From the NCBI RefSeq assembly GCF_000025925.1, contig NC_014033.1, positions 3,030,001 through 3,062,000 on the forward strand: a stretch of DNA of 32,000 nt, read 5' to 3'. Positions 4,163 through 27,282 of this stretch are shown one piece after another (within the stretch, counting starts at the first letter, position 1; each line of letters starts with the position of its first letter). The notes under the pieces are model-generated. The model was given only the letters and a program-made list of their open reading frames with translations, ran no database searches and was not told where the DNA came from. The DNA comes from Xylanibacter ruminicola 23. Lineage in GTDB: Bacteria > Bacteroidota > Bacteroidia > Bacteroidales > Bacteroidaceae. The position numbers were made by a program, and so were the translations under genes.

Positions 4163-4960
4163 TTATACCTGTTTTGTTACTTTTATTGTCATGGTCTTGG
4201 GATCGAAGGCTATACCCTCCCGTTCTATAAACCTGCCTAATGCCCCTTGTTCTGCCAGCGCTTTTGGCGAACCAATAGCCACTGCTTCGCCTTGAGTCAT
4301 CAGCCAGATGGTATCGGCCATCTGCAGGGCCAGTTCCACATCGTGCGTGGATAAAAAAATTACTTTGTCAGCCTCACGACTAATGCGACACAACAGCTGC
4401 AACACCTCAACCTTGCTGGGATAGTCGAGAAAAGCCGTTGGCTCGTCAAGATAAATCACAGGTGTTTGTTGGGCCAGCGCTTTGGCTATCATTACCTTCT
4501 GGCGTTCGCCATCGCTCAGCGTGTGCACCATGCGCTTCTTCAGCGGCTCTATACCCACCATCGCAATAGCCTCGTCAACCACCTGCAGGTCGTCTTTCGA
4601 ATAGGTGCCCCAGAATCCTGTGTAGGGCGATCGCCCCAACGATACCAGCTCGCGAACAGTCATATTCCTCACATCAGGCTTTTCGGTCAGCACCACACCT
4701 ATCAGGCGGCTCAGCTGTTTATCGCTGTACTCTGAGAGTTCGCGACCTTCTAACAGTATCTCGCCACCTGTTTTTGGTTGGAATGAAGATAGGGTTTTTA
4801 GTAGCGTTGATTTTCCTACACCATTAGCACCCAGCAGACAAGTAAGTTCACCGCTTTTGATGGTACCATCGATGCCCGTAGCCACCGTTTTTATACCGTG
4901 TTTTGTCTGGTAGCCAATGCTTAGATTGCGCAGTTCTATAGTTTCGCCCGTCGTCTTCAT
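4163..4960 (-). CDS. ABC transporter ATP-binding protein (FecE/BtuD-like)
   Basis: Walker A GANGVGKST, ABC signature LSDGERQ, Walker B VIYLDEPT. It lies 15 nt upstream of cobD on the same strand. Confidence 0.85.
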   Translation of the reverse strand: MKTTGETIELRNLSIGYQTKHGIKTVATGIDGTIKSGELTCLLGANGVGKSTLLKTLSSFQPKTGGEILLEGRELSEYSDKQLSRLIGVVLTEKPDVRNMTVRELVSLGRSPYTGFWGTYSKDDLQVVDEAIAMVGIEPLKKRMVHTLSDGERQKVMIAKALAQQTPVIYLDEPTAFLDYPSKVEVLQLLCRISREADKVIFLSTHDVELALQMADTIWLMTQGEAVAIGSPKALAEQGALGRFIEREGIAFDPKTMTIKVTKQV

Positions 4961-17086: not shown

Positions 17087-18451
17087 ATGATTACTAAGAA
17101 TATATCAAAATATCTCGCCATGTTCTTCATGGTTTGCGGCATGGCTGCTAATACAGCTTGCACATCTGATGAGGATCCGTTCTTCACGGCTGGCGAGGAC
17201 GATTATCCCCGTATCCTGAATACGGATATCCCCGAAGGTAAGGGTGGCGAGCCTGGCGTGCTCATGACCATCGAGCGCACCCAGAACTTCCAGTTCGACG
17301 TAATGGTTACCCCCGTTAAGTACACCACCGTTACCTGGCTTATCGACGATGAGCAGGTAGCCGAAGGTCTTTCTATCGACACACCTGTACTGGCTGGCGA
17401 GCACATCGTAAAGATTGTAGCAGCTACCACTAAGGGGCTTGAAACCTCACGTACCTGCAAGCTCGTTGTTCTGCCTGCCGAGGGCGATCCCTCACTGGCC
17501 AGCGACGGCAAATCACGTTGGCTCACTATCGGTAGCACCAAAACTATCGATTGCACCAATGCTACTAACGTAACCAAGGTGTTCGTGGGCAAGCAGGAGG
17601 CTAGCAACGTATCGTTTGCAAACGGAAAACTTACCTTTACTGTTCCCAGCATGGCCGAGGGCGAGTACACTGTTGTTATCGAGGCCGATGGCGCACGTTA
17701 TGGTTGCGGCGTATTCACAGTCAGCAACACCGAGTATGTTGATCCAGGCGTAAAGGAGACTGTACTCTGGGAGGGTAGCACCGAGATTAACTGGGGCGAT
17801 GCAAACGTTACTGTCTCAGCTGCCGATATGGCTAATGTGCCTGTAGGCGCTACCATCCGTTTGGTTTACGAAATGGCCGATATGCCTGATGGTTATCATG
17901 CCCTGCGTATCACCACACCTTGGTGGGGCGATAATGCCGAGGATCAGATCGTAGCTCAGTTCGACCTCACAGCCGACACACCAAACCCATTCGAGTTCAC
18001 CTACACCGAAGCCAACAAGGCAATCGTAGATGAGCGTGGAGGTATGCTCATCGTAGGTTATGGTTACAAGCTTACAAAAGTGGTTGCTTTAGAAAATGTA
18101 GCTCCTGCCGAGACCACCCTTTGGGAAGGCGGCATCGAGATTAACTGGGGCGATGCAAACGTTACTGTCTCAGCTGCCGATATGGCTAATGTGCCTGTTG
18201 GCGCTACTGTGCATGTTTACTACCAGATGGCCGATATGCCTGATGGCTATCATGCCCTGCGTATCACCACACCTTGGTGGGGCGATAATGCCGAGGATCA
18301 GATTGTAGCTCAGTTCGATCTCACAGCCGACACCGCTAACCCATACGACTTTACCTACACCGAAGCCAACAAGGCAATTGTAGATGAGCGTGGCGGTATG
18401 CTCCTTGTAGGCTACGGTTACAAGCTTACCAAGGTAACATTCTCGAAGTAA
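17087..18451 (+). CDS. SusE/F-position surface lipoprotein with Ig-like domains and two tandem 118-aa putative glycan-binding modules
   Basis: Lipobox NTAC followed by the acidic stretch TSDEDP. It occupies the third position after SusC/SusD. Its C-terminal half is an internal tandem repeat. Confidence 0.7.
   Translation: MITKNISKYLAMFFMVCGMAANTACTSDEDPFFTAGEDDYPRILNTDIPEGKGGEPGVLMTIERTQNFQFDVMVTPVKYTTVTWLIDDEQVAEGLSIDTPVLAGEHIVKIVAATTKGLETSRTCKLVVLPAEGDPSLASDGKSRWLTIGSTKTIDCTNATNVTKVFVGKQEASNVSFANGKLTFTVPSMAEGEYTVVIEADGARYGCGVFTVSNTEYVDPGVKETVLWEGSTEINWGDANVTVSAADMANVPVGATIRLVYEMADMPDGYHALRITTPWWGDNAEDQIVAQFDLTADTPNPFEFTYTEANKAIVDERGGMLIVGYGYKLTKVVALENVAPAETTLWEGGIEINWGDANVTVSAADMANVPVGATVHVYYQMADMPDGYHALRITTPWWGDNAEDQIVAQFDLTADTANPYDFTYTEANKAIVDERGGMLLVGYGYKLTKVTFSK
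17756..18448 (+). repeat. In-frame tandem duplication (2 x 354/339 nt) inside the SusE/F-like gene
   Basis: Unit 1 is 17756-18109 and unit 2 is 18110-18448, a period of 354 nt (118 codons). There are identical runs of 62 nt and 56 nt (for example GAGATTAACTGGGGCGATGCAAACGTTACTGTCTCAGCTGCCGATATGGCTAATGTGCCTGT). Confidence 0.95.
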
Positions 18452-18481
18452 ATAAAACATCTATATTACCATGAAATTTCA

Positions 18482-18521
18482 AGGGCTGGTATTCCTCCAC
18501 ACGGATACCAGCCCTCATTTT
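18482..18521 (+). terminator. Terminator after SusE/F-like gene (end of PUL)
   Basis: An 11-bp stem, AGGGCTGGTAT (18482-18492) / ATACCAGCCCT (18505-18515), followed by CATTTTG. Confidence 0.6.
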
Positions 18522-18569
18522 GTTTAACCATTATATCACAACTTATTTTAAGGTGATAATTGCGAAATC

Positions 18570-18818
18570 TCTCAACCTCTCACTCAAATCTTCTGAAACA
18601 TGCATAAATACTGGGGATAGAGGAGGATGAGAGGTTTGCTAAACCTCTCACTAAAGCTCTCACTATACCTCTCACTTTTATATCAAAGATGACGAATGCT
18701 GAAACTTCTCATAGGGGGAGGTTGAGGGAGAGGTTAGGTGAGAGGTTGGAGCAACCTCTCATGTGGCTGAAATGCTTTGTATATAAAGGTTTCAAAGGTA
18801 TTGAGTGAGAGGTTGAGA
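18570..18818. repeat. Element R1: 249-bp word-built palindromic element (candidate structured RNA, inverton or DNA cruciform)
   Basis: Perfect 18-bp terminal inverted repeat, 18570-18587 / 18801-18818. About eleven copies of TGAGAGGTT/AACCTCTCA. Local hairpins at 18628-18650 and 18739-18761. Co-linear homologue at 21371-21677. Confidence 0.8.
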
Positions 18819-18824
18819 TGTTTT

Positions 18825-18860
18825 TGCAAAAAAATCATGCCACCATTAATGCTGGCATGA
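18825..18860 (-). terminator. Terminator of MACPF gene
   Basis: On the minus strand, an 8-bp stem (TCATGCCA/TGGCATGA, 18835-18842 / 18853-18860) is followed by T7 (complement of 18825-18834). Confidence 0.6.
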
Positions 18861-18949
18861 GTACTTATTAGATATGACTCCAGTACGCCTTAGGAAGTAC
18901 TGCAGTCCTCTTACTAAAGGACTCGAGTACTCCTACGGAAGGATTTTCA

Positions 18950-19999
18950 TTACAACTGATGGCTATGTATATATGCTTTGACAGCTCGCTGTACCTCAGT
19001 ACTTTTTGTTTTGTTGGTTATCAGTTGGTAGATCGGTATTACATCGTCGCCAGTCAGCAGTACGAGCGATAGATTATCGTTATTTGCTTGGTTCCACCAT
19101 TCAGCAATAGCTTTTGATGATTTCTCTTTGCTGAGAGGTAATTGAGCGAATTCAGTTGAAAGCCTTTGCGTGTTGCCACCATGACATTGTACTGATAGTG
19201 CGCCACCTTTTGTAGCTTTCGAATCGATAATTTTCCAATAAACGGGGTTATATACCTCGTTCATACGACGGAACATACTACATAAGAAGCAATCGTCATC
19301 GTTTGTATTTTCTTTCAGGCCAGAACGATAGAGTGATAGGATATTTATTCCCATAAGTGCACATTTGAGTACATGGGTGCCAAATCGTTCTACAATACGT
19401 TCAGCGCTTTCGTTTTCAAGTGCTTGTTTGAAATCATCAGTCAGGATACGGTCAATATATCGTTCAGTCGGTATCAGCAGTTTCTTTTCATATACGGCGT
19501 ATCTGTCCATATACATCATAAACGAGTAGTTATCGCTTCGCTCCTTGCTTTCCTTAAACAAAGGATTGCTTGTAAAAGTACCAGCGAAATATACGTCGCC
19601 TGGTTCGCCCTCGAGTGTAAATCCTTCTGCTCTACGCAAACCATCCAAGAAAGTCCATGAATACCCAATGCCACTTACCAGACTTCCTGTTCCGCTACTG
19701 GCCACAATAGATGTCATCTCGTCTGGTTCTATTTTGTTCAGGTCGATCACATTCTCGCGCAGGCATTCGTTGCTAAGATATGGCCCCGTTATATCGTAAC
19801 CTGAGCCCAGATATTCTTTTGCAGCAAGAGGCATATCGGCCGATAGGTTGGTGATGGTTTCCTCTTCGGGTACAGCAACTTCGCCCTTGTTAGTAGGGTC
19901 GTTATTATCTACGATATCTTCATTATTACTGCTGCAAGAGACGAGAGAGAAGGCAGTAAGCGCAATACATATTGTTCTCCTGAAATTAATTGTAATCAT
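18950..19999 (-). CDS. MACPF (perforin-like) domain lipoprotein, BSAP-like candidate pore-forming toxin
   Basis: Lipobox FSLVSC followed by SSNNEDIVDNND. The MACPF entry motif is YLGSGYDITG. The signature-like stretch FGTHVLKCALMGI compares with [YW]G[TS]H[FY]x6GG. The C-terminal ...VIPIYQLI is typical of bacterial MACPFs. Confidence 0.7.
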   Translation of the reverse strand: MITINFRRTICIALTAFSLVSCSSNNEDIVDNNDPTNKGEVAVPEEETITNLSADMPLAAKEYLGSGYDITGPYLSNECLRENVIDLNKIEPDEMTSIVASSGTGSLVSGIGYSWTFLDGLRRAEGFTLEGEPGDVYFAGTFTSNPLFKESKERSDNYSFMMYMDRYAVYEKKLLIPTERYIDRILTDDFKQALENESAERIVERFGTHVLKCALMGINILSLYRSGLKENTNDDDCFLCSMFRRMNEVYNPVYWKIIDSKATKGGALSVQCHGGNTQRLSTEFAQLPLSKEKSSKAIAEWWNQANNDNLSLVLLTGDDVIPIYQLITNKTKSTEVQRAVKAYIHSHQL

Positions 20000-20022
20000 A
20001 CCTTATATAATTGGTTATAGTG

Positions 20023-20030
20023 CAAAAGTA
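20023..20030 (-). promoter_or_regulatory. -7 box (TACTTTTG) for MACPF gene
   Basis: The reverse complement of 20023-20030 is TACTTTTG, 23 nt upstream of the start codon. Two ATCCCTAT direct repeats and an AGGGA-AA-TCCCT inverted repeat lie just upstream (20061-20095). Confidence 0.45.
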
Positions 20031-20108
20031 CTAATTTCTGTCAATACACAAAAAATAATATCCCTATAATTAATGAGGGAAATCCCTATTATTCTATTAT
20101 CAAGCGTG

Positions 20109-20990
20109 CTATATTCTAAAATACTTTAGCAGTTCTTTATACATATCTTGGGCTGTAAGACAAGTATCTGTAAGGTAGCCGTTAATATGTCCCCATTCTC
20201 GCAGACCTCTATAATAGAATATCTTCAAATCATCTGTAATAATGAATGGAACAATATTATTGGCTAGGCACTCCTTAAACATCAGCAATCGACCAACGCG
20301 ACCATTACCATCTTGGAAAGGATGAATCTGTTCAAGCCGCACATGGAAGTCAAGAATATCTTCGAATGATTTCTTGCCTTTATGATTATATTCATCCAAT
20401 AGGGTTTTCAACTGCTTGTGTACATCCTCTGGTGCACAAGTATCCTGTCCACCAACCTCGTTTGGTAATCGTTTATAATCGCCAACGGCAAACCAATCCT
20501 TACGACTATCAGAAGTTCCTGATTTCAGCAACAGATGCAGATGCTTTACCAGATTTTCTGTCAGTTTATCCTCTGTATGATCGATGATATAATCGATACA
20601 ACGGAAGTGATTAACTGTCTCTACAACGTCATCCACATTTATAGCGCTGTCAGTAACACCAATCGTATTAGTTTCAAAAATATATCGAGTCTGATCGTGG
20701 GTAAGCTTGCTACCTTCTATATGATTAGAGTTATAAGTAAGGTCTATCTGGGTGCGATGATAAATACCACCTTTTAGTTTCGATGCCTTCTGCTCTCTCA
20801 ACGCCTTAAGAAGTGGCGATACCTTTTTATTTTTCTCACCACGCTTGGGCAAAGCAGCATCTGCAGGAATATTCCAAGTCTTTCCTGTTAAGAAAGCCCC
20901 CTCTATCTTCCCTTGGGCACAATAATTTCGGGCCGTACGCTCAGAAATACCATACTTTTCTGCAAACTTACTAACTGATATATACTCCAT
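20109..20990 (-). CDS. Fic-family AMPylase with N-terminal HTH DNA-binding domain and intramolecular inhibitory motif (class II-like)
   Basis: Fic motif HPFQDGNGRVGR matches HxFx(D/E)GNGRxxR. The inhibitory motif SNHIEG matches (S/T)xxxE(G/N). The N-terminus ISVSKFAEKYGISERTARNYCAQGKI is a MerR/excisionase-type HTH. Confidence 0.85.
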   Translation of the reverse strand: MEYISVSKFAEKYGISERTARNYCAQGKIEGAFLTGKTWNIPADAALPKRGEKNKKVSPLLKALREQKASKLKGGIYHRTQIDLTYNSNHIEGSKLTHDQTRYIFETNTIGVTDSAINVDDVVETVNHFRCIDYIIDHTEDKLTENLVKHLHLLLKSGTSDSRKDWFAVGDYKRLPNEVGGQDTCAPEDVHKQLKTLLDEYNHKGKKSFEDILDFHVRLEQIHPFQDGNGRVGRLLMFKECLANNIVPFIITDDLKIFYYRGLREWGHINGYLTDTCLTAQDMYKELLKYFRI

Positions 20991-21001
20991 GTTTCAACGC
21001 T

Positions 21002-21068
21002 ATCGGCAAGTTTTTACGCCAATTCACGCCACAAATATATAACTTTTTGCCGATACCGGCAAGTTTTT
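21002..21068 (-). promoter_or_regulatory. HTH-Fic promoter (-7 TATATTTG) flanked by operator-like repeats
   Basis: The reverse complement of 21032-21039 is TATATTTG. A perfect palindrome TTGCCG-ATAC-CGGCAA lies at 21047-21062. The direct repeat CGGCAAGTTTTT occurs at 21004-21015 and 21057-21068. Confidence 0.5.
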
Positions 21069-21160
21069 GAAACAAAAACCACTAAATACTTCACTTTTTA
21101 ACTCAATGAATCATGGAGTCGGTTCCATGATTTCCAGTAAATTCGACAGAACGGCGTTTT

Positions 21161-21336
21161 TTGTTCCCAAGGTGGGAATGGATTGTTCCCTAACTGGGAA
21201 TAAAATGTTCCCTAGTTGGGAATAAAGTGTTCCAAAGAAGGGAATATCCCCTAAGGAATAGGTCGAACACCTTGTAGGCATAATCTGAATCACTTGTAGA
21301 CATAATCCGAATGACTCATAGAAATAACTCGAATAC
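21161..21336. repeat. Array of eight phased 22-bp tandem units (five palindromic TGTTCCC-N-TGGGAATA type, three CTTGTAGNCATAATCNGAATNA type)
   Basis: Unit starts are 21161, 21183, 21205, 21227, 21249, 21271, 21293 and 21315, an exact 22-bp register. The first four units each contain the inverted repeat TTCC(C)/GGGAA. Confidence 0.85.
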
Positions 21337-21370
21337 AATAACCTATTTTATATATAGTTTATCGAATTTT

Positions 21371-21677
21371 TCTCTCATCTCTCAACAAATCGCTCAAAAC
21401 CCGCATAAACACTAGGGATTCGAGCGATGAGAGATTCTAAAAATCCCTCCCTAATCTCTCACTAATCTCTCACCCGATCCCTCCAGACACACACACCTCA
21501 GCCAGATTTTAATATTTAAAGAAAAAACCGAAAATAATAGCCAAAAAACTTGCAAAACTTCCTGTGAGGGTTTCCTGAGAGATTGTTGAGAGATTAGGGA
21601 GAGATTCCAAAAATCTCTCACCCATCTCAAATCCTTTGTACACGGGCGTTTCGAGAGATTTCTTGAGAGATGAGAGA
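21371..21677. repeat. Element R2: 307-bp paralogue of R1 with all words switched to TGAGAGATT/AATCTCTCA
   Basis: The 29-nt terminal inverted repeat, 21371-21399 / 21649-21677, matches at 25 of 29 positions. Hairpins at 21428-21461 and 21599-21619. The unpaired cores shared with R1 are GCATAAAYACTRGGGAT and AAATSCTTTGTA. Confidence 0.8.
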
Positions 21678-21700
21678 TTTTTTAATATGATATAACAAAA

Positions 21701-21862
21701 GAAAGCCGCAACCCTGAAAAGGTTGCGGCTCTATTTATATAAGAGGTGTATCGCTTATGCGAATGGATTCTCTGTTGGGTAGTAATCGCCCTTGGGGAAG
21801 TTGTAGTCGATCTCGTCAACGGGGATACCCATGTACTTGAGAACCTCCCAGAGATACTTACC
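21701..21862 (-). pseudogene. Orphan duplicate of the terminator plus last ~36 codons of the isomerase-like gene (copy A of a direct repeat)
   Basis: Aligns with 25737-25893 at a constant offset of 4031 nt in the coding part. There is a 67-nt perfect block (21748-21814 = 25779-25845), then 5 mismatches in 48 nt. Similarity stops abruptly at 21862/25893. Confidence 0.85.
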
Positions 21863-21897
21863 CTGATGGCCGAGACAATTTTTCCGCCAATTATTTC

Positions 21898-21925
21898 TTT
21901 GTTTCAGAAAAAATCGTTAACTTTG
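21898..21925 (+). promoter_or_regulatory. Candidate promoter of the kinase module (-7 TAACTTTG)
   Basis: TAACTTTG at 21918-21925 and TTTG at 21898-21901, 46 nt upstream of the ATG at 21972. Confidence 0.45.
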
Positions 21926-21971
21926 CCAACCTAAAGTCAAACCATATAAAGTCACAGGTGGTGATTAGATA

Positions 21972-22526
21972 ATGAAACAAACAGAATTACTTTGCAAAAC
22001 TATTGAGCAAGCGCTTCATCAGGAGATACGCACGCCAAAAGATTTCGACCAGCTGAGAGAACGCATCTTTCTGCGATTACATCAGATGCTTAGTGCCACA
22101 ACCCTTAAACGTGTGTGGGGCTACTTAGACAATGAGGGCGAACCAAGCGTGAGAACACTCGATACCTTAGCCCAGTTCATTGGTTACAAGAACTATCAGG
22201 CGTTTTGCATGCACTCTCCTGCTGATGGCATGGAGCCAAGTAATCTGGCCATGAATCGCCATCTGGATGTAAATGCCGACCTTGCTGTGGGAGAATGCTT
22301 AACACTCTATTGGCTACCTGACAGAGTGTGTCATATCCGCTATGAGGGCGATATGCGTTTTGTGGTTACAGCATCAGAGAACACTCGTCTGAAAGCAAAC
22401 GATACCTTTTGCTGTAGTCTGATTATCGAAGGTGAGCCACTATATCTTAGTCAGTTGCAACAGGGCGATCAGGAACAAACCAATTATGTTTGTGGCAAAC
22501 GGGGAGGCATTAGATATGAGCGATGA
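21972..22526 (+). CDS. Hypothetical 184-aa protein, possible N-terminal HTH-like region; translationally coupled to the kinase
   Basis: ATG start with a promoter-like box upstream. The N-terminal helical segment ...SATTLKRVWGYLDNEGEPSVRTLDTLAQFIGYKNYQAFC resembles HTH modules seen at N-termini of Bacteroidetes signalling proteins (from memory). The stop (22524-22526) overlaps the kinase ATG (22516) by 11 nt. Confidence 0.55.
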   Translation: MKQTELLCKTIEQALHQEIRTPKDFDQLRERIFLRLHQMLSATTLKRVWGYLDNEGEPSVRTLDTLAQFIGYKNYQAFCMHSPADGMEPSNLAMNRHLDVNADLAVGECLTLYWLPDRVCHIRYEGDMRFVVTASENTRLKANDTFCCSLIIEGEPLYLSQLQQGDQEQTNYVCGKRGGIRYER

Positions 22527-24741
22527 TGCTTCAAGCTACATAGTAAGTGATTTCGAGGGACTCAGCTCCACCTTCTCCGAGATGGTTGAATTGCCATCTA
22601 CGGGCTATTGTCGTTTGTACAAAGCCAAACGCTATGGGCGATGGTTTCTGCTCAAATGTCTGAAGCAGGAACTATCATCCGATACCGCCTATCAACAGTT
22701 GCTTCGCAAGGAATTCGAGATTATGATGCGCTTGCAGCATCCATCTATCATGCAAGCCATTGGTATGGAGGATGTTTTGATAGCTGACGGGCATTACGAA
22801 CGATGCCTCATAGCCGAATGGATTGATGGCAAGACGCTGGCTCAATATCTTGAGGCCAATCCCAGTCGTAGCGATCGCCAACGCATAGCTATCGATTTGG
22901 CAGAGGCTTTGGCCTACATTCATCACCAACAAGTGGTACATCGCGATCTGAAGCCCTCAAACATCATGATTACCTACAACGGCAGTTATGTGAAGATTAT
23001 CGACTTCGGACTAGCTGATACCGATAGTCATGCCATACTGAAACAACCTGCTGGCACATTGAAGTATATGGCTCCAGAGCAAGCCACAAAAGCTCTACCA
23101 GATGTTCGTAACGATATCTATTCGCTGGGAGTCATACTTCTGGAGATGGATATATATAAAAAGGTGGCTGAGCGATGTCTACGCCCCATCCATCAACGCT
23201 ATCAGAATATGGACGATCTGCTTGCCGCCCTTCATCAGCAGCGCAAGTGGCATTTCAAGCTTATGGCATCAGCCATGATAGCCCTGGTTGTCATCTTTGC
23301 TTTGATAGCAAAAGTGAATGCGATAAGTCATAAAGCCTCTGATTTAGAGAAACATACGGCTGAGCTTAATTTTCAGGTGAAAGTGCTGAACCACGAGATT
23401 ATTGGCTTCGAGGACCCTGAGGCAAAGCAAAAATGCATCAGCCATTGGGATTATGATCACGATGGTGAACTGAGCTATCAAGAAGCAGCCTCAGTAAAGT
23501 CGCTTGGCGATGTGTTTACAAAGGACACGCTGTTGCGATCGTTCCCAGAACTGGAACACTTTACTGGTCTTAACGAAATTGATGCTTGTGCCTTTTGGGA
23601 TTGCACCCACCTGGAGTCAATCCGCATACCTCGAACGGTACGTTTTATCCGCCAGAGTGCCTTTCGCCATACAGGTCTGCAGATGATAACCATCCCCAGT
23701 AGTGTCGTAGCTATAGGCGACCATATACTGGAAGAGTGTCCTGAGCTTGAAACAGTCATCTTCGAATCAGTATTACCCAACACCAACGATGGTGCTCATC
23801 ATCTGGTTGACTGCCCCAAACTCTCTGCTATCTTTGTGCCAGAGTTCTATATGACAGAAACGAATGAGAAGAAATCTTGGCAGAGTCTCAAACCATATAT
23901 CCATAAGTATATAGAGTTTCGCGATCCGGCAGTTAAGTCCGTCTGTGTTAGTCATTGGGATAGTAATGGCGATGGCGAATTGTCTATAGACGAGGCTATG
24001 GCTGTTAACTCGCTTGGTGGTGCTTTTTCTGGAAATACGGCTATACGCAGCTTTGATGAGTTGCGCTATTTCACAGGCTTGAAAGAGATAGAGGCAAATA
24101 CTTTTAACGGTTGTTTAAATCTAAAGTCTGTACAACTGCCTCGCTCTGTAGAAACGCTTGGCGAGAATGCCTTTCTGAAATGCGACTTTAACGCGTTTTA
24201 CATCCCATCTGGCGTCACTCATATTGCCTCTACAGCCTTGGGTGAAAACCATCATCTGTGTAAGGTAGAAATAAGTGCCGATAATCCCGTTTATGATAGT
24301 CGCGAAGATTGCAATGCCATTATAGAAACGGCTACCAATCAGATGGTTACAGGTAGTGCTACAGCCTTTATACCCAATAGCGTAACGAGTCTCAGCGACG
24401 AATGCTTCAACTGGTTTGATCGCGATGAATTGGTCATCCCTTCTCAGCTAACCCATATAGGTACTTGGGCCTTGACCTGTATCTTCCAACGGATATATTG
24501 TATGTCGGACGTACCCCCATTTTATCGACCAGATACTCGCGAGTCCTTTTGGGAGCATCTGCCAGAAATCTATATTCCTTATGGCTCTACAGAAGCCTAT
24601 TGCCATGCAGAAGGTTGGAAGCTATTAACACATCGTCTTCATGAATTCCCAGCTAAACCAGCACCCGTAACAACAGATTTTTCATACTATTTTAAAACTT
24701 GGACCAATTTGGACCAATTAAGTTTCCTGAATTTCGATTAA
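22516..24741 (+). CDS. Transmembrane Hanks-type Ser/Thr protein kinase with extracytoplasmic EF-hand-like loops and BspA-type leucine-rich repeats
   Basis: Kinase motifs are the VAIK-like LLKCLK, HRDLKPSN, DFG and YMAPE. TM helix LMASAMIALVVIFALIAKV lies at about 23263-23316. The two DxDxDGxLxxxE loops are DYDHDGELSYQE (23449-23484) and DSNGDGELSIDE (23959-23994). Each loop is followed by LRR_5-like units (F..C..L.SI.IP.SV..I...AF). Confidence 0.8.
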   Translation: MSDDASSYIVSDFEGLSSTFSEMVELPSTGYCRLYKAKRYGRWFLLKCLKQELSSDTAYQQLLRKEFEIMMRLQHPSIMQAIGMEDVLIADGHYERCLIAEWIDGKTLAQYLEANPSRSDRQRIAIDLAEALAYIHHQQVVHRDLKPSNIMITYNGSYVKIIDFGLADTDSHAILKQPAGTLKYMAPEQATKALPDVRNDIYSLGVILLEMDIYKKVAERCLRPIHQRYQNMDDLLAALHQQRKWHFKLMASAMIALVVIFALIAKVNAISHKASDLEKHTAELNFQVKVLNHEIIGFEDPEAKQKCISHWDYDHDGELSYQEAASVKSLGDVFTKDTLLRSFPELEHFTGLNEIDACAFWDCTHLESIRIPRTVRFIRQSAFRHTGLQMITIPSSVVAIGDHILEECPELETVIFESVLPNTNDGAHHLVDCPKLSAIFVPEFYMTETNEKKSWQSLKPYIHKYIEFRDPAVKSVCVSHWDSNGDGELSIDEAMAVNSLGGAFSGNTAIRSFDELRYFTGLKEIEANTFNGCLNLKSVQLPRSVETLGENAFLKCDFNAFYIPSGVTHIASTALGENHHLCKVEISADNPVYDSREDCNAIIETATNQMVTGSATAFIPNSVTSLSDECFNWFDRDELVIPSQLTHIGTWALTCIFQRIYCMSDVPPFYRPDTRESFWEHLPEIYIPYGSTEAYCHAEGWKLLTHRLHEFPAKPAPVTTDFSYYFKTWTNLDQLSFLNFD

Positions 24742-24799
24742 TTTTGCACCGAAATTAAATTTTTCGAACATATATTAATAACTTAATTCAATTCAAAGT

Positions 24800-25711
24800 A
24801 TGAAAACAAAATTCATGTCAGTTTCGATGAGTTTACTCATCGCAGGTTTCACATTGTGCGCTTGTACAGAAGGTCTTGGTGGTGTAGGTGACAACCCAAT
24901 TACTCCAGAGACTCCAACTACTCCTGATGAGCCAGAGACACCAACAGAGATTAAGGGTATTCTTTCTGAGATTTCGGTTGAATCTGAGGGCAATAACGGC
25001 GTTCTTGCTTTCACTTATGGTGATGATGGTAAGGTTACAAAAGCTGCTTATAAAAGCGTAGATCGATTTACAGGTGATTCTTACGAAGGATTATCATGCA
25101 CCTTTACCTATGAAACTGATAAAATAACCGTAAAGGCCAAAAGAGACGATAATGTAGAGACTAAGGTCTATACCCTTACCGATGGTGTTGTTACAAAATA
25201 TGCAGATGATTATGGCTACGATGAGTTTACCTATAAGGATGGTAAACTGATTGGTTTCAAGGCCTGGGAGAAAAATGAAGAGTCAGGTGAAATGGAAACT
25301 GATGAATTATTTGATTTTTCTTGGAATGAAAATGTTATTGCTAGTTACGAAAGATATGAACTGAATGACCAAGAAGAAAAAGAAGATGTAAATAATTACA
25401 CCGTAACCTATGGTACAGTTAAGGCTGGCGTTCTTGCTAATATCTTCTTCTATGGTGGTGGAGTCTTTGAGCTTCCTTTCTATGTAGAGGATTTGGCTGA
25501 ATCAGCTCCTATCTTCGACAAACTTGGCGCAATGCCTGAGTATCTGCCTGAGAAGTTGGTTAGAACTTGGAAAGAAGAAGGAAATGATGTCACAAGAACC
25601 ATTACTGCAAAATACACCTTGGATAGCAACAACCTTGTTACTAAGGTCGTTGTCAAGGTTGTTGAAGGCGAAAATACCGAAGAAACAACTTACAACCTTA
25701 AGTGGAAGTAA
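24800..25711 (+). CDS. Hypothetical lipoprotein with Pro/Thr-rich linker and repeated beta-hairpin (YD-like) motifs
   Basis: The signal/lipobox is LIAGFTLCAC and the linker is NPITPETPTTPDEPETPTE. The repeated patterns are FTYGDDGKVTK, YTLTDGVVTKY, FTYKDGKLIGF and KYTLDSNNLVTKV. Confidence 0.6.
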   Translation: MKTKFMSVSMSLLIAGFTLCACTEGLGGVGDNPITPETPTTPDEPETPTEIKGILSEISVESEGNNGVLAFTYGDDGKVTKAAYKSVDRFTGDSYEGLSCTFTYETDKITVKAKRDDNVETKVYTLTDGVVTKYADDYGYDEFTYKDGKLIGFKAWEKNEESGEMETDELFDFSWNENVIASYERYELNDQEEKEDVNNYTVTYGTVKAGVLANIFFYGGGVFELPFYVEDLAESAPIFDKLGAMPEYLPEKLVRTWKEEGNDVTRTITAKYTLDSNNLVTKVVVKVVEGENTEETTYNLKWK

Positions 25712-25736
25712 TCCTATCACAATTTATATAAATCAA

Positions 25737-25770
25737 GAAAGCCGCAACCTTGAAAGTTGCGGCTTTATTA
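25737..25770. terminator. Bidirectional hairpin terminator between lipoprotein gene and isomerase-like gene (copy B)
   Basis: A 9-bp stem, AGCCGCAAC (25740-25748) / GTTGCGGCT (25756-25764), flanked by an A-run and a T-run. Confidence 0.55.
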
Positions 25771-25785
25771 TTTAGAATGTATCGC

Positions 25786-27282
25786 TTATGCGAATGGATT
25801 CTCTGTTGGGTAGTAATCGCCCTTGGGGAAGTTGTAGTCGATCTCCTCAACGGGGATGCCCATGTACTTGAGAATCTCCCACAGGTACTTACCAGCGTGA
25901 TCGAACATCACAGCGCAGTGGTGTGGGTAGTGCTTCTCGATGAGCACGTGACGATAGAAACGGCTCATGTTCTTAACACCGAAGATACCGATAGAACCGA
26001 ATGAGCGTGTAGCTACAGGAATAACCTCACCCTGAGCGATGTAAGCGCGGAGCTTGGTGTCGGCTGTGCTCTGCAGACGATAGATAGTAGCCTTGCCTGG
26101 CTTGATGTCGCCCTCGAGAGTACCGTTTGTTACCTCTACAGGCAGAGCGCGTGCCATGATGCGCTGGAAGCACATGCTGCAGTTGCAAACCTTAGAAGAA
26201 GCGGTGTTACCACAGTGGAAGCCCATGAAGATCTCCTTGTCTGTGTACTCGTCGCACAGGAACTTCTTGCCCTTGATGCTCTCTTCGTACATATCGTTAG
26301 GAACGGTGTTGTTGATATCGAGCAACGTAACGGCATCCTCTGTGATGCAAGTACCGATGAACTCAGACAGTGTTCCGTAGATATCAACCTCGCAGCTAAC
26401 GGGGATACCGCGGCTGGTGAGACGGCTGTTTACGTAGCAAGGAACGAAACCAAACATGGTCTGGAATGCAGGCCAGCACTTGGTGGTGAGTGATACGAAC
26501 TGGCGGCAGCCCTTGTGAGCCTCGATCCAGTCGGTCAGAGTGAGCTCATACTGAGCGAGCTTAGGCAGAACAGAAGGAATCTTGTTGCCAGCACCCAGCT
26601 CATTAGCCATATCCTTCACTACATCGTCGATACGTGGATCGCCCTGATGCTTCTGGAACGACTCGAGCAGGTCGAGCTCTGAGTTCTCCTCGATTTCTAC
26701 GTCGAGATCATACAGGGCACGGATAGGAGCGTTACAAGCCAGGAAATTGTTTGGACGAGGACCGAAGCTGATAATCTTCAGGTTCTGCAGACCAACGATA
26801 GCGCGAGCGATGGGCAGGAACTCGTGGATGAGCTCAGCGCAGTGGTCAGCATCACCAACTGGCTCCTCTGGGATATAAGCACGAGTCTTACGCAGAGACA
26901 GAGCGTGGCTGGCATTCAGCATACCACAGTAAGCATCACCACGACCATCAATCAGGTCGTTCTGAGTTTCCTCGGCAGCAGCACAGAACATAGCTGGGCC
27001 ATTGAAATACTTAGCCAGCATGGTCTCAGAAATCTCAGGACCGAAGTTACCAAGATATACACAGAGTGCATTACATCCTGCCTTATTGATATCCTCGAGG
27101 GCCTGCTGCATGTGGATTTCGCTCTCAACAATGCAGATAGGGCACTCGTAGATGCCATCCTTACCGAATTTCTTCTCATACGCAGCGATAACAGCCTTAC
27201 GACGGTTAACAGCTAATGACTCAGGAAAACAGTCGCGAGATACAGCGACGATTCCAACTTTAATTTTAGGTACGTTGTTCAT
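25786..27282 (-). CDS. L-fucose/L-arabinose isomerase-family protein (sugar isomerase-like, exact substrate unknown)
   Basis: A 498-aa cytosolic protein with ATG start and strong core-like codon usage. The overall sequence recalls the fucose-isomerase-like family, but I cannot cite a diagnostic motif. Confidence 0.5.
   Translation of the reverse strand: MNNVPKIKVGIVAVSRDCFPESLAVNRRKAVIAAYEKKFGKDGIYECPICIVESEIHMQQALEDINKAGCNALCVYLGNFGPEISETMLAKYFNGPAMFCAAAEETQNDLIDGRGDAYCGMLNASHALSLRKTRAYIPEEPVGDADHCAELIHEFLPIARAIVGLQNLKIISFGPRPNNFLACNAPIRALYDLDVEIEENSELDLLESFQKHQGDPRIDDVVKDMANELGAGNKIPSVLPKLAQYELTLTDWIEAHKGCRQFVSLTTKCWPAFQTMFGFVPCYVNSRLTSRGIPVSCEVDIYGTLSEFIGTCITEDAVTLLDINNTVPNDMYEESIKGKKFLCDEYTDKEIFMGFHCGNTASSKVCNCSMCFQRIMARALPVEVTNGTLEGDIKPGKATIYRLQSTADTKLRAYIAQGEVIPVATRSFGSIGIFGVKNMSRFYRHVLIEKHYPHHCAVMFDHAGKYLWEILKYMGIPVEEIDYNFPKGDYYPTENPFA

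Follow-up and report, generated by a model that had tools for sequence, protein, structure and literature searches.

In phage P4, two cis sites (ori and crr) that carry the same octamer iterons are located up- and downstream of the alpha primase-helicase operon, and the iterons are bound by the C-terminal winged helix of alpha. The two sites are ~4.5 kb apart and are not mutual inverted repeats, and P4, which has an integrase, is a complete satellite phage. The Rep proteins of SaPI islands (PriRep5, Rep1) are self-loading initiator-helicases that bind 6-12 iterons of 5-6 nt via a C-terminal winged helix. Directly 3' of rep, the SaPI origin has two oppositely oriented iteron sets with an AT-rich centre between them (PMC9371898). 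From island to island, the iterons change in sequence along with Rep, and the winged helix is responsible for the lineage-specific recognition (PMC9371898). The C-terminal domain of the SCCmec initiator-helicase Cch2 binds short direct repeats just 3' of its own gene, where the putative origin contains AAGTG iterons and inverted repeats are present too (PMC7581432). The origin of pRN1-type plasmids is a 100-bp stem-loop downstream of orf904, which encodes a primase-SF3 helicase-winged-helix protein, and the conservation of its fold but not its sequence among related plasmids is a case of covariation in DNA, not RNA (PMC4234260).

We analyzed a 32,000-nt stretch of Xylanibacter ruminicola 23 (contig NC_014033.1, positions 3,030,001 to 3,062,000; hereafter, the window), which contains two long palindromes, R1 and R2. 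The comparison with related rumen Prevotella/Xylanibacter loci (designated by L numbers) showed that a conserved cassette, with two inverted arms around the gene of a VapE-like helicase, is the source from which R1 and R2 descended by separate internal deletions. R1 and R2 are the orphaned inverted arms of a gene-deleted Prevotella/Xylanibacter cassette, probably cis-acting DNA sites, and most likely old protein-binding (origin-like) sites and not a structured RNA.

Two palindromic word arrays in the window

R1 and R2 are strong imperfect palindromes, composed of CTCTCA-core words at a spacing of 11-12 nt whose orientation is opposite between the two arms. The word phasing determined by Tandem Repeats Finder was 12 nt in R1 and 11 nt in R2. 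The motif TGAGAGRTT had 14 copies in the window (0.55 expected; 0/100 shuffles), all 14 of them inside R1 or R2. The GC content of the R2 centre was 20-28%, compared with 37-55% in the arms, while that of the R1 centre dipped weakly, to 35-40%. No VapE or DUF6078 coding remnant was found anywhere in the window.

A sequence-only reading of this region had described R1 and a paralogue, and the sequence features it listed were all present. These include, in R1, a perfect 18-bp inverted repeat (18570-18587 and 18801-18818) and the tight hairpins TGAGAGGTTT-GCT-AAACCTCTCA (18628-18650) and TGAGAGGTT-GGAGC-AACCTCTCA (18739-18761), and in R2 (21371-21680), the TGAGAGATT/AATCTCTCA words and the cores in common with R1. 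We also agree that the two are true paralogues with one architecture (they are only ~61% alike) and that they belong to no known RNA family, IS or MITE. The R1 palindrome is real but extends a few bases past the limits first given, to 18565-18823. The claim that R1 is devoid of a TAnnTTTG box holds except for a single match, TACCTTTG, on the minus strand at 18800, and R2 has none. That reading did not recognize R1 and R2 as what deletions have left of a gene cassette.

Table 1 Features of the R1 and R2 regions, in coordinates of the window.
Feature	Coordinates	Strand	Description	Basis
R1	18565..18823	.	259-bp imperfect palindrome; relic of a G-type (GAGAGGTT-word) VapE cassette without the gene	Inverted repeats I2/I3; fold z; nhmmer arm matches 18566-18678 (+) and 18822-18720 (-)
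R1 upstream-type (A) arm	18565..18676	+	Two outer words, GCATAAATACTGGGG core, tight hairpin (18628-18650), three words at 12-nt spacing	
R1 centre	18677..18712	.	Short remnant of the region that is 3' of the upstream arm in intact cassettes; promoter and VapE ORF deleted	Comparison with the L054/L068 upstream regions
R1 downstream-type (B) arm	18713..18823	-	Three words at 12-nt spacing, tight hairpin (18739-18761), TATACAAAGCATTTCAG core, outer words	
Array beside R1	18876..18943	.	22-bp period, 3.1 copies, palindromic GGACTnnAGTCC-like units	TRF; homology to L068 7027-7078
First array beside R2	21161..21246	.	22-bp tandem array, 3.9 copies, TTCCC-N4-GGGAA palindromic cores	Repeat D2; TRF
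Second array beside R2	21271..21334	.	22-bp period, 2.9 copies, CTTGTAGACATAATCCGAATCA; separates the first array from R2	TRF
R2 upstream (A) arm	21371..21487	+	Arm of an A-type (GAGAGATT-word) cassette	nhmmer, 102.8 bits; 84% identity to L055 2743-2558 and L040
R2 centre	21488..21558	+	AT-rich (GC 20-28%); precedes the VapE promoter in intact cassettes	
R2 downstream (B) arm	21559..21680	-	Downstream arm	95% identity to L040 948-824, 91% to L055 1288-1160

R1 and R2 are derived from an intact VapE cassette by deletion

A total of 41 distinct paired elements (43 with orthologous duplicates) were found at the related loci. Of these, 25 were long (1545-1696 bp), and the other 16 were short (141-536 bp) and had at least six different centres. 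In 25 of the 41, the same two arms are ~1.3-1.6 kb apart, around the promoter and ORF of a VapE-like helicase (400-450 aa; PF05272 and DUF3874), usually with a DUF6078 gene next. Each arm of the intact cassette is ~120 bp long and has 7-9 CTCTCA-core words at 11-12-nt spacing. The upstream arm, which ends ~60-90 nt 5' of the VapE -33 box, is followed by an AT-rich stretch and then by a canonical Bacteroidetes promoter (TTTG-N20-TAtcTTTG) ahead of the ATG. The downstream arm, which begins with the stop codon of VapE, separates VapE from the small Cys-rich gene for DUF6078, and arrays of 22-bp palindromic repeats also belong to the unit. A sigma-70 promoter scan was uninformative, as expected of such a scan in Bacteroidetes.

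The R2 region matches the A-type cassette of L040 in two parts, with window positions 21158-21558 corresponding to L040 2640-2261 (85% identity) and 21559-21683 to L040 948-824 (95%), which showed a clean 1.3-kb gene deletion in R2; L055 gave the same result. The right end of the R2 centre is just past the -33 TTTG-like box (…CTTGCAAAAC), with the -7 box and the ORF deleted, and the B arm opens with the 3' end of the lost VapE gene (21559-21578), namely its last ~6 codons and a TGA stop that is contained in the first TGAGAG word. R1 arose by a deletion of its own in a second cassette lineage, and its arms match the G-type cassettes of L054, L042 and L068, with 82-85% identity to their upstream arms. 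In the sister genome GCA_900102205.1, an intact A-type cassette and a window-like locus were detected on one contig, ~100 kb apart, and a pattern scan of three X. ruminicola representative genomes found no intact G-type VapE. One deletion derivative was common to five loci (L047, L051, L058, L092 and L097), whose contigs are short and whose flanks are partly shared.

The neighboring repeats are parts of the same cassettes. The array beside R1 is the end array of G-type cassettes, which lies after DUF6078 in L068, L088, L099 and L095; near R1, the DUF6078 gene that normally separates the B arm from this array is absent. The first array beside R2 is the left-boundary array of A-type cassettes and was at the left edge of all those examined, and a counterpart of the second was found in L040, L107, L112 and L116.

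The VapE-like and DUF6078 proteins

The bracketed ORF matched PF05272 (E = 2e-36), DUF5906 and DUF3874, as well as DNA helicase and primase families in PHROGs, and its product consists of a VapE domain, an SF3-type P-loop and DUF3874 (VapE/VirE family). The sole significant PDB match of the protein was 7pds, the SaPI5 PriRep5 helicase (E = 2.3e-9), with the sequence similarity confined to the ATPase core. A full-length VapE modelled with AF2 from a shallow alignment had a low overall confidence (pLDDT 43); the sole confident part was the C-terminal ~75 residues (pLDDT 74-89), which have an H-E-H-H-E-E winged-helix topology. Because of the poor model and the lack of any significant Foldseek match of it in the PDB (best E = 0.44), the C-terminal winged-helix-like domain is a prediction from this topology. 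Winged-helix proteins were among the weak Foldseek matches, which is only a hint. A search of viral contigs with a VapE alignment recovered only relatives at 25-27% identity. For DUF6078, no match was detected in PDB, PHROGs, PADLOC or NCBIfam, and a full-text literature search retrieved no paper mentioning it.

The BT4734 and BF3469 proteins of Bacteroides share the VirE and DUF3874 core with the Prevotella proteins (28-36% identity) but have an N-terminal AEP primase domain (VirE-N primase) that the latter lack, and no origin or binding site was given for them in the literature searched. Flanking word clusters were detected in only two of nine more distant Bacteroidales homologues, and the other seven of these BT4734/BF3469-type homologues, mostly beside an HU gene, had none. 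The two with clusters, which are the closest examples, have the same layout of word clusters and 22-bp palindromic arrays. The P. distasonis locus has eight copies of ATCTACMA (0.73 expected) in two inverted clusters, the second directly after the stop codon, and the B. finegoldii locus has 10 copies of TGACAAT (1.45 expected) in the same arrangement.

Two word lineages, each with its own VapE clade

The words within one element are all-G or all-A, and the two word lineages (GAGAGGTT and GAGAGATT) each have their own VapE clade, the VapE identity being ≥80% among elements with the same word type and 61-66% across the two lineages. The VapE residues discriminating the two types are concentrated in the N- and C-terminal regions, and the putative recognition helix differs (NKVRLGKTIKALGF in the A-type, TKVHLGYAMKDLGF in the G-type). 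Words and putative initiator co-vary between lineages, as a correlation in which the G and A words represent one lineage split only, with further words in the two distant homologues.

The arm-to-arm symmetry was 91.6% in words and 72.7% in spacers, and in most spacer columns the symmetry did not exceed chance. Perfect covariation is seen exactly at the single variable position of each word, and this position switches together in all ~5 words of an arm, direct repeats too. The arm cores (27-32 nt) occur as A/A, B/B and mismatched A/B combinations. The matched G-to-A and C-to-T changes had been interpreted as selection on pairing; given that base pairing does not need a concerted change across direct repeats, they make no case for it. 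The counts of G·U-type mismatches in R1 and R2 were inconsistent, and they were not used as strong evidence because they are confounded by shared descent.

R1 and R2 as probable origin-like protein-binding sites

The co-evolved site of a cognate DNA-binding protein, which the sequence-only reading had kept as a fallback, is the best fit to the data. The words may be iterons recognized by the winged-helix-like C-terminal domain of the helicase, as in SaPI Rep and SCCmec Cch2, in which case the arms would act as origin and autoregulatory sites, and the G/A word change would be a change of binding specificity. Upon gene loss, the two opposite iteron sets would come to abut an AT-rich centre, resembling a compact SaPI-type origin, and the resulting sites in R1 and R2 are probably inert, or bound only in trans. 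Features of such origins found here are short repeat copies far above chance, in the window and in each arm, and opposite sets around an AT-rich region, weakly so in the R1 centre. In the intact relatives, an arm adjoins the VapE gene, which is absent from the window; Pfam, PHROGs and the 7pds match identify the product as a helicase, and its winged helix is a prediction from the topology of the locally confident AF2 segment. Alternatively, the 22-bp arrays rather than the words could be the true iterons, and DUF6078 instead of VapE could be the word-binding protein.

The cassette resembles the SaPI/PICI origins in its short iterons, two opposite sets, AT-rich stretch and start at the helicase stop codon. 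However, its iteron sets bracket the helicase gene and the promoter, whereas the SaPI sets are together downstream, and this splitting counts against an origin, as does the lack of a primase domain in the Prevotella proteins. The cassette also differs in that each arm includes, besides the words, a conserved core of 27-32 nt and a tight hairpin, in its extra 22-bp palindromic arrays and DUF6078 gene, in having no integrase, repressor, primase or packaging module, and in its host (Bacteroidota). The SCCmec Cch2 system has only three iterons on one side of the gene, in a recombinase-bearing cassette where CCPol-MP is the primase. The pRN1 system is similar in having a palindromic DNA structure beside an SF3-type replication gene, but it is archaeal, with one stem-loop on one side and no repeated words, and its stem integrity has been shown to matter, whereas the symmetry of R1 and R2 is concentrated in words. 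Phage P4 shares with the cassette the separated iteron sites on both sides of a primase-helicase gene. Further points against an origin are the absence of integrase, excision or packaging genes nearby, the tight control that a firing chromosomal origin would need, and the narrow comparative base of one G/A lineage split and two of nine distant homologues. R1 also shows signs of neutral decay: a word unit has been lost from one allele, the loop is flipped in one, and two loci have shrunk to 141-148 bp.

Alternative explanations

The arms could instead be operators, with the VapE C-terminal domain or DUF6078 binding the words, looping the DNA and repressing or timing VapE/DUF6078, and R1 and R2 would then be dead operators. 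The positions of the upstream arm shortly ahead of the -33 box and of the downstream arm between the two genes agree with this, as does the 11-12-nt phasing, which would place the sites on one helix face, and initiators commonly autoregulate via inverted repeats. On the other hand, 7-9 sites per arm are far above what an operator usually needs, the protein is a helicase from a family tied to mobile-element replication, and the inner words adjoin an AT-rich stretch. We consider the operator function unlikely to be the main one, but it is compatible with the origin reading, not exclusive of it.

A more speculative extension is that the VapE-DUF6078 unit (~2.3 kb) is an unrecognized integrase-less mini-replicon of Bacteroidales, with R1 and R2 as compact origins fired or titrated in trans by an intact copy and maybe as hot spots for defence-type islands. 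The 22-bp array is at the left end in the A-type and at the right end in the G-type, that is, the gene order is circularly permuted between lineages, and a boundary segment is on either side of the unit in different loci. Together with the 34-45-bp direct repeats flanking some cassettes, this suggested a circular form integrating at many chromosomal sites. Two metagenome contigs of exactly 2301 bp each are equal to the cassette; they had no terminal overlap and so provided no evidence for a circle. Overall, such a replicon seems doubtful. The genes next to R1 encode Fic/PDC-S04, MACPF and kinase proteins and would be such an island. A tRNA search revealed no integration site. The 15-kb contexts of the cassettes and the window contained no integrase or packaging genes, the cassette neighbors being housekeeping genes, and the unit was not assigned to the PICI/phage satellite class, given the missing integrase and packaging genes.

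Somewhat less probable still is a mobile element with the arms as its terminal inverted repeats, of which R1 and R2 would be MITE-like, non-autonomous derivatives formed by internal deletion. As in MITEs and TIR transposons, there are long inverted arms with subterminal repeats and short internal-deletion derivatives, at least six of them independent and with both arms, although the retention of both arms is partly an ascertainment effect because the search required them. The cassette was found in at least eight genomic contexts, the G-type homology ends at the outer limit of the upstream arm, and the flanking direct repeats and the 2301-bp contigs mentioned above would also fit a mobile unit. 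In contrast to these elements, no transposase or recombinase was found, the longer relatives encode only VapE (a helicase-type ATPase) and DUF6078, and no target-site duplication abuts R1 or R2. The conserved A-type unit extends ~160 nt past one arm and ~470 nt (DUF6078) past the other, which places both arms inside the unit and not at its ends. The copy number is low (2-3 pattern matches per genome), and the position of R1 was identical in 11/11 alleles, as well as in Ga6B6, D31d and one metagenome contig. Searches with blastn gave no match of R1 to plasmids or of R2 to phages, and no IS match. The tight-hairpin pattern had 27 matches in viral contigs, all rejected as single chance sites without word enrichment.

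R1 and R2 are very unlikely to be centromere-like partition sites of the parC/ParR or tubC/TubR kind, in which a small adaptor protein binds phased short repeats. The words at 11-12 nt lie on both sides of the promoter region, as do the repeats in parC of plasmid R1, and the cassette encodes the small DUF6078 protein, but it has no partition NTPase (ParA/ParM/TubZ), the VapE motifs are of helicase type, and the solved relative is a replicative helicase.

A structured RNA, in the form of a long hairpin with stems kept by compensatory change, was the leading idea of the sequence-only reading and now appears highly improbable. Both elements are predicted to fold into one long and very stable hairpin (z relative to shuffles of -9.75 and -8.81 for the plus and minus strands of R1, and -12.4 and -13.7 for those of R2), and the G-to-A changes are matched by C-to-T across the arms. 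However, the favored strand is opposite in the two (plus by 20 kcal/mol in R1, minus by 36 kcal/mol in R2), and the covariation is limited to word positions and concerted over direct repeats, with most spacers at chance, so that the symmetry is in the words and not in the stems. A scan of the whole window at Rfam gathering scores returned no matches, and an E-value scan of 18400-21800 only generic plant miRNA-precursor hairpin models (42 bits vs. a 200-bit cutoff). In addition, the upstream arm in intact cassettes is 5' of the promoter, and the arms are >1 kb apart.

Least probable of all is an invertible (phase-variable) segment with the terminal inverted repeats as its ends: the 18-bp perfect repeat surrounds 213 bp, a size similar to that of Bacteroides invertons, and the allele L007 has a flipped 5-nt hairpin loop, yet none of the 11 R1 alleles was inverted (the A core is on the PUL side in all), DUF6078 was downstream of VapE and on the same strand in 22/22 long elements with a DUF6078 ORF (including L077-L079 and L082, with the strand from gene calls), none of the window ORFs tested had an invertase or recombinase domain, and there is no outward-facing TAnnTTTG promoter save the one weak minus-strand match at 18800.

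Implications

Predicted helicases of the VirE/VapE-DUF3874 type, among them the BT4734 family, are abundant in Bacteroidales of the gut and rumen, and we know of no DNA target for them. The repeatable architecture of lineage-specific word arrays around the gene provides well-defined candidate binding sites, and the two word types, GAGAGGTT and GAGAGATT, would form a natural specificity pair that goes with a few residue changes in one helix. For genome annotation, long "covarying" palindromes of the R1/R2 type should be read as orphaned protein-binding arrays and not as RNA genes. If the arrays are origins, rumen Prevotella would have a small and widespread replication module, which could serve as a replicon for genetic tools in organisms that have few.

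Paired word arrays in the window and their relatives

R1 and its paralogue R2 are composed of short repeats ("words") with a TGAGAG/CTCTCA core. The perfect 18-bp inverted repeat and the two tight hairpins that the sequence-only reading had described in R1 were recovered, as were its interior words TGAGAGGTT/AACCTCTCA, and R2 does repeat the R1 layout with the words TGAGAGATT/AATCTCTCA. All 14 window copies of TGAGAGRTT (0.55 expected) fall in R1 or R2, where the words recur every 12 nt and every 11 nt, respectively. The two elements are co-linear with ~61% identity, and a long imperfect hairpin is predicted for each (fold z-scores -8.8 to -13.7).

Features of the window around R1 and R2
Feature	Position	Strand	Remarks
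R1	18565-18823		between PUL and MACPF
18-bp inverted repeat	18570-18587 / 18801-18818		R1
Tight hairpins	18628-18650, 18739-18761		R1
22-bp-period array	18876-18943		right of R1; GGACTnnAGTCC-like palindromic cores; expected G-type place
Strain-specific islands	18942-21702, 21703-25786		nested, beside R1
Fic gene	20109-20990	-	N-terminal excisionase-type HTH
22-bp-period array	21161-21246		left of R2; TTCCC-N4-GGGAA palindromic cores; expected A-type place
22-bp-period tandem array	21271-21334		left of R2; third array
R2	21371-21680		paralogue of R1
116-bp direct repeat	21747-21862, 25778-25893		96% identity
184-aa ORF	21972-22526		
Kinase ORF	22432-24741	+	Ser/Thr kinase with BspA-type LRRs
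Fucose-isomerase-like gene	25786-27282	-	

The genomes that the window matches belong to the Xylanibacter (Prevotella) ruminicola group (GCA_019973335.1 and GCA_900102205.1). Ten further genomes or metagenome contigs also have R1 at this place, after the last gene of the PUL and next to the MACPF gene (mean identity 98%). The differences among R1 alleles look like repeat decay. Three alleles are without one 12-nt word unit, and in strain D31d R1 has shrunk to 148 bp with the two tight hairpins fused. In another allele (L007, 1059-1580; L-numbers denote related loci), one tight hairpin has a 5-nt loop that is the reverse complement (GCTCC versus GGAGC, alignment columns 210-212) of the loop in all ten remaining sequences, among them the window. 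Template switching in palindromes produces micro-inversions of this kind.

An architecture-based pattern that finds all four window arms, and matched none of 100 shuffles, was scanned across bacteria and archaea at one genome per species. Rumen Prevotella/Xylanibacter accounted for 22 of the 31 matches; the rest were scattered, had few words and were about as numerous as expected by chance. A metagenome scan gave 72 stretches more. An nhmmer profile of the arms yielded 43 unique paired elements, or 41 without orthologous duplicates, of which 25 were long (1545-1696 bp) and 16 short (141-536 bp).

The intact cassette

Every long element contains one ORF of 400-450 aa between its arms, with VapE-like (PF05272, E = 2e-36), SF3-type P-loop (DUF5906) and DUF3874 domains. 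The next gene encodes DUF6078 (143-148 aa, Cys-rich) in 22 of the 25; L042 and L054 have none, and the L106 copy is truncated to 122 aa. In the sense of VapE, the order is upstream arm, AT-rich stretch (~55 nt), canonical Bacteroidetes promoter (TTTG-N20-TAtcTTTG), VapE ORF, downstream arm and DUF6078. In the upstream arm, 2-3 outer words precede a core of 27-32 nt; two forward words follow the core and are separated by a 5-nt spacer from 3-4 complementary words spaced 11-12 nt. The TGA stop of VapE falls inside the first TGAGAG word of the downstream arm. The cores take two forms, A (GCATAAACACTGGGG) and B (CCCGTGTACAAAGGG), and need not be complementary, since A/A, B/B and A/B elements all occur.

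The words within one element are, with few exceptions, all G-type (GGTT) or all A-type (GATT). A-type cassettes have three to four copies of a 22-bp repeat with the palindrome TTCCC-N4-GGGAA at their extreme left end; across different genomic contexts, homology reaches leftward to these repeats and rightward to the stop codon of DUF6078, which gives a unit of ~2.25 kb. In G-type cassettes an array of 22-bp-period GGACTnnAGTCC is located after DUF6078, and the upstream arm itself is the left boundary.

R1 and R2 as deletion relics

R1 and R2 are almost certainly deletion relics of the VapE cassette. For R2, window positions 21158-21558 align to positions 2640-2261 of L040 at 85%, and the next base, 21559, resumes at L040 948 at 95%; the deletion starts past the -33 promoter box, ahead of the -7 box, and stops at the last ~six VapE codons. 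R1 has the same relation to the GGTT-word cassettes L042, L054 and L068, with other breakpoints. No coding remnant of VapE or DUF6078 was found in the window, and its three 22-bp arrays, two of them with palindromic cores, belong to cassette boundaries and resemble classical plasmid iterons. The short elements represent at least six different deletion derivatives, whose retention of arms is not usable as evidence of selection because the search itself required arms. R2 may still meet its putative protein partner, because an intact A-type cassette lies ~100 kb away in the sister genome GCA_900102205.1; a pattern scan of three X. ruminicola representative genomes revealed no G-type partner for R1.

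Mobility and neighboring islands

The cassettes have housekeeping genes as neighbors, and no integrase, transposase or tRNA was found near them. The PICI class fails, with no integrase, repressor or packaging module, and the MITE class also failed on the tested features: a MITE is weakened by arms internal to a conserved unit in A-type cassettes and by the lack of a transposase and of target duplication. The 22-bp array takes permuted positions in the A-type and G-type lineages, the segment ttgtgcattcttgggcaagccaagcggcatagccgag adjoins the left side of the cassette in some loci (L065/L153) and its right side in others (L079/L082), and 34-45-bp direct repeats occur at both cassette boundaries in L069 and L082. 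Two whole metagenome contigs of 2301 bp (L169 and L171) are exactly arm-VapE-arm-DUF6078. Speculatively, these features hint at a circular form of the cassette, the integration of which would fit the flank repeats and the two-sided ttgtgcattcttgggcaagccaagcggcatagccgag segment. The two contigs come from different sequencing runs, share 99.9% identity and the same ends, and have no terminal overlap, so they probably reflect assemblies broken at a repeated unit and not circles. A two-gene block (a ~335-aa lipoprotein-like ORF and DUF1643) lies beside the cassette 22-bp array in opposite orientations in L055 (3071-4599) and L065 (5627-7179).

Comparison with L067 and L052 revealed nested strain-specific islands beside R1. 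Strain Ga6B6 has PUL-R1-fucI, D31d has in addition the kinase segment, and the window strain further has MACPF-Fic-22-bp arrays-R2. The 116-bp direct repeat, just right of R2, is the duplicated 3' end of the fucose-isomerase-like gene, and the 4 kb between its copies (the 184-aa ORF, the kinase and a 303-aa ORF) resembles an insertion that duplicated its target or att site. The 184-aa and kinase ORFs overlap by ~95 nt; the later kinase start of the gene callers gives 751 aa. Among PADLOC models, the Fic protein hits PDC-S04, a candidate defence family (E = 1e-111), and the kinase hits PD-T4-6/mad6 (E about 1e-39 to 5e-41), thus the region beside R1 resembles a defence island. The Fic gene is also found near cassettes in L049 and L055.

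Words rather than stems

The arms of R1 and R2 are putatively protein-recognised DNA rather than an RNA or DNA stem under selection. The matched G/A changes had been read as a sign of selected pairing. When both arms of 38 elements were aligned to one profile, the perfectly symmetric two-state columns (9 versus 29 elements) were 12, 68 and 78, with 89 and 100 nearly so, and each of these falls on the one variable position of a word in the series. These positions switch in concert along each arm, which speaks against pairing selection because pairing does not require such concert. Symmetry was at chance level in spacer columns 51-61 and 107-121, and overall reached 91.6% in words versus 72.7% outside them. 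The proposal of a structured RNA likewise failed on the tested features: the Rfam check gave no match, R1 folds better on the + strand (by 20 kcal/mol) and R2 on the - strand (by 36 kcal/mol), and the upstream arm lies outside the VapE mRNA because it precedes the promoter. The inverton class also failed on the tested features.

Predicted word recognition by VapE

Two VapE clades match the word type exactly, with at least 80% identity within and 61-66% between types. The columns that distinguish the types cluster at residues 12-112 and 313-404, and the ATPase core is conserved. DUF6078 is likewise type-specific; VapE is favored as the word partner because word arrays are present without DUF6078 (L042, L054 and L165 of B. 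finegoldii). In L168 of B. finegoldii (4440-4600), a DUF6078 gene without adjacent VapE is followed by an array of TGTGACA and TGGCAC words in both orientations, which suggests that DUF6078 may possess DNA sites of its own.

The only significant PDB match of the cassette VapE was 7pds, the SaPI5 helicase PriRep5 (E = 2.3e-9). The AF2 model of A-type VapE was poor overall (pLDDT 43) and confident in the last ~75 residues (74-89), which run helix-strand-helix-helix-strand-strand, the order of a winged helix; Foldseek with this model returned no significant match. The putative recognition helix differs between word types. From homology and correlation, we infer that the cassette's own helicase uses the words as its iterons or operators.

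Distant homologues and known replication systems

A tblastn search of PLSDB retrieved BT4734/BF3469-family proteins of Bacteroides, Parabacteroides and Phocaeicola (28-36% identity), which are fusions of AEP primase, VirE and DUF3874 (PMC11724360); no DNA target is assigned in the BT4734/VirE literature examined. The layout is not limited to the A- and G-type lineages, as the two closest homologues share the plan with other sequences. In P. distasonis, the unit (DUF6078, six 22-bp TTTCC-N4-GGAAA repeats, primase-helicase) lies between two inverted ATCTACMA clusters (8 versus 0.73 expected), the second after the stop codon and including a tight hairpin. In B. finegoldii, TGACAAT occurs 10 times (1.45 expected) over two clusters; the upstream one, phased and with a tight hairpin, is followed by four 22-bp-period CACGGnnGTG palindromes, the gene and, directly after its stop, the second cluster. 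Seven further, more distant homologues, mostly beside an HU gene, had nothing comparable.

SaPI Reps are self-loading initiator-helicases that recognise iterons of five or six nucleotides through a C-terminal winged helix; the iterons, six to twelve in number, directly follow rep and are split evenly between the two sides of an AT-rich region, with the two sets pointing opposite ways (PMC9371898). SCCmec Cch2 behaves similarly (PMC7581432), and pRN1-type primase-helicases have a palindromic origin adjoining their own gene, conserved in fold and not in sequence (PMC4234260). By analogy, the iteron origin of SaPI/SCCmec-type self-loading helicases appears to be the functionally closest known system. 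The Prevotella cassette differs in that its putative iteron sets bracket the initiator gene, in its conserved arm cores, 22-bp palindromic arrays and DUF6078, and in the repeated origin of gene-less palindromes. We found no published description of this arrangement, and DUF6078 was absent from the literature searched in full text. The words are more likely than not to be binding sites of the cassette's helicase, which would act there in replication initiation and/or autoregulation.
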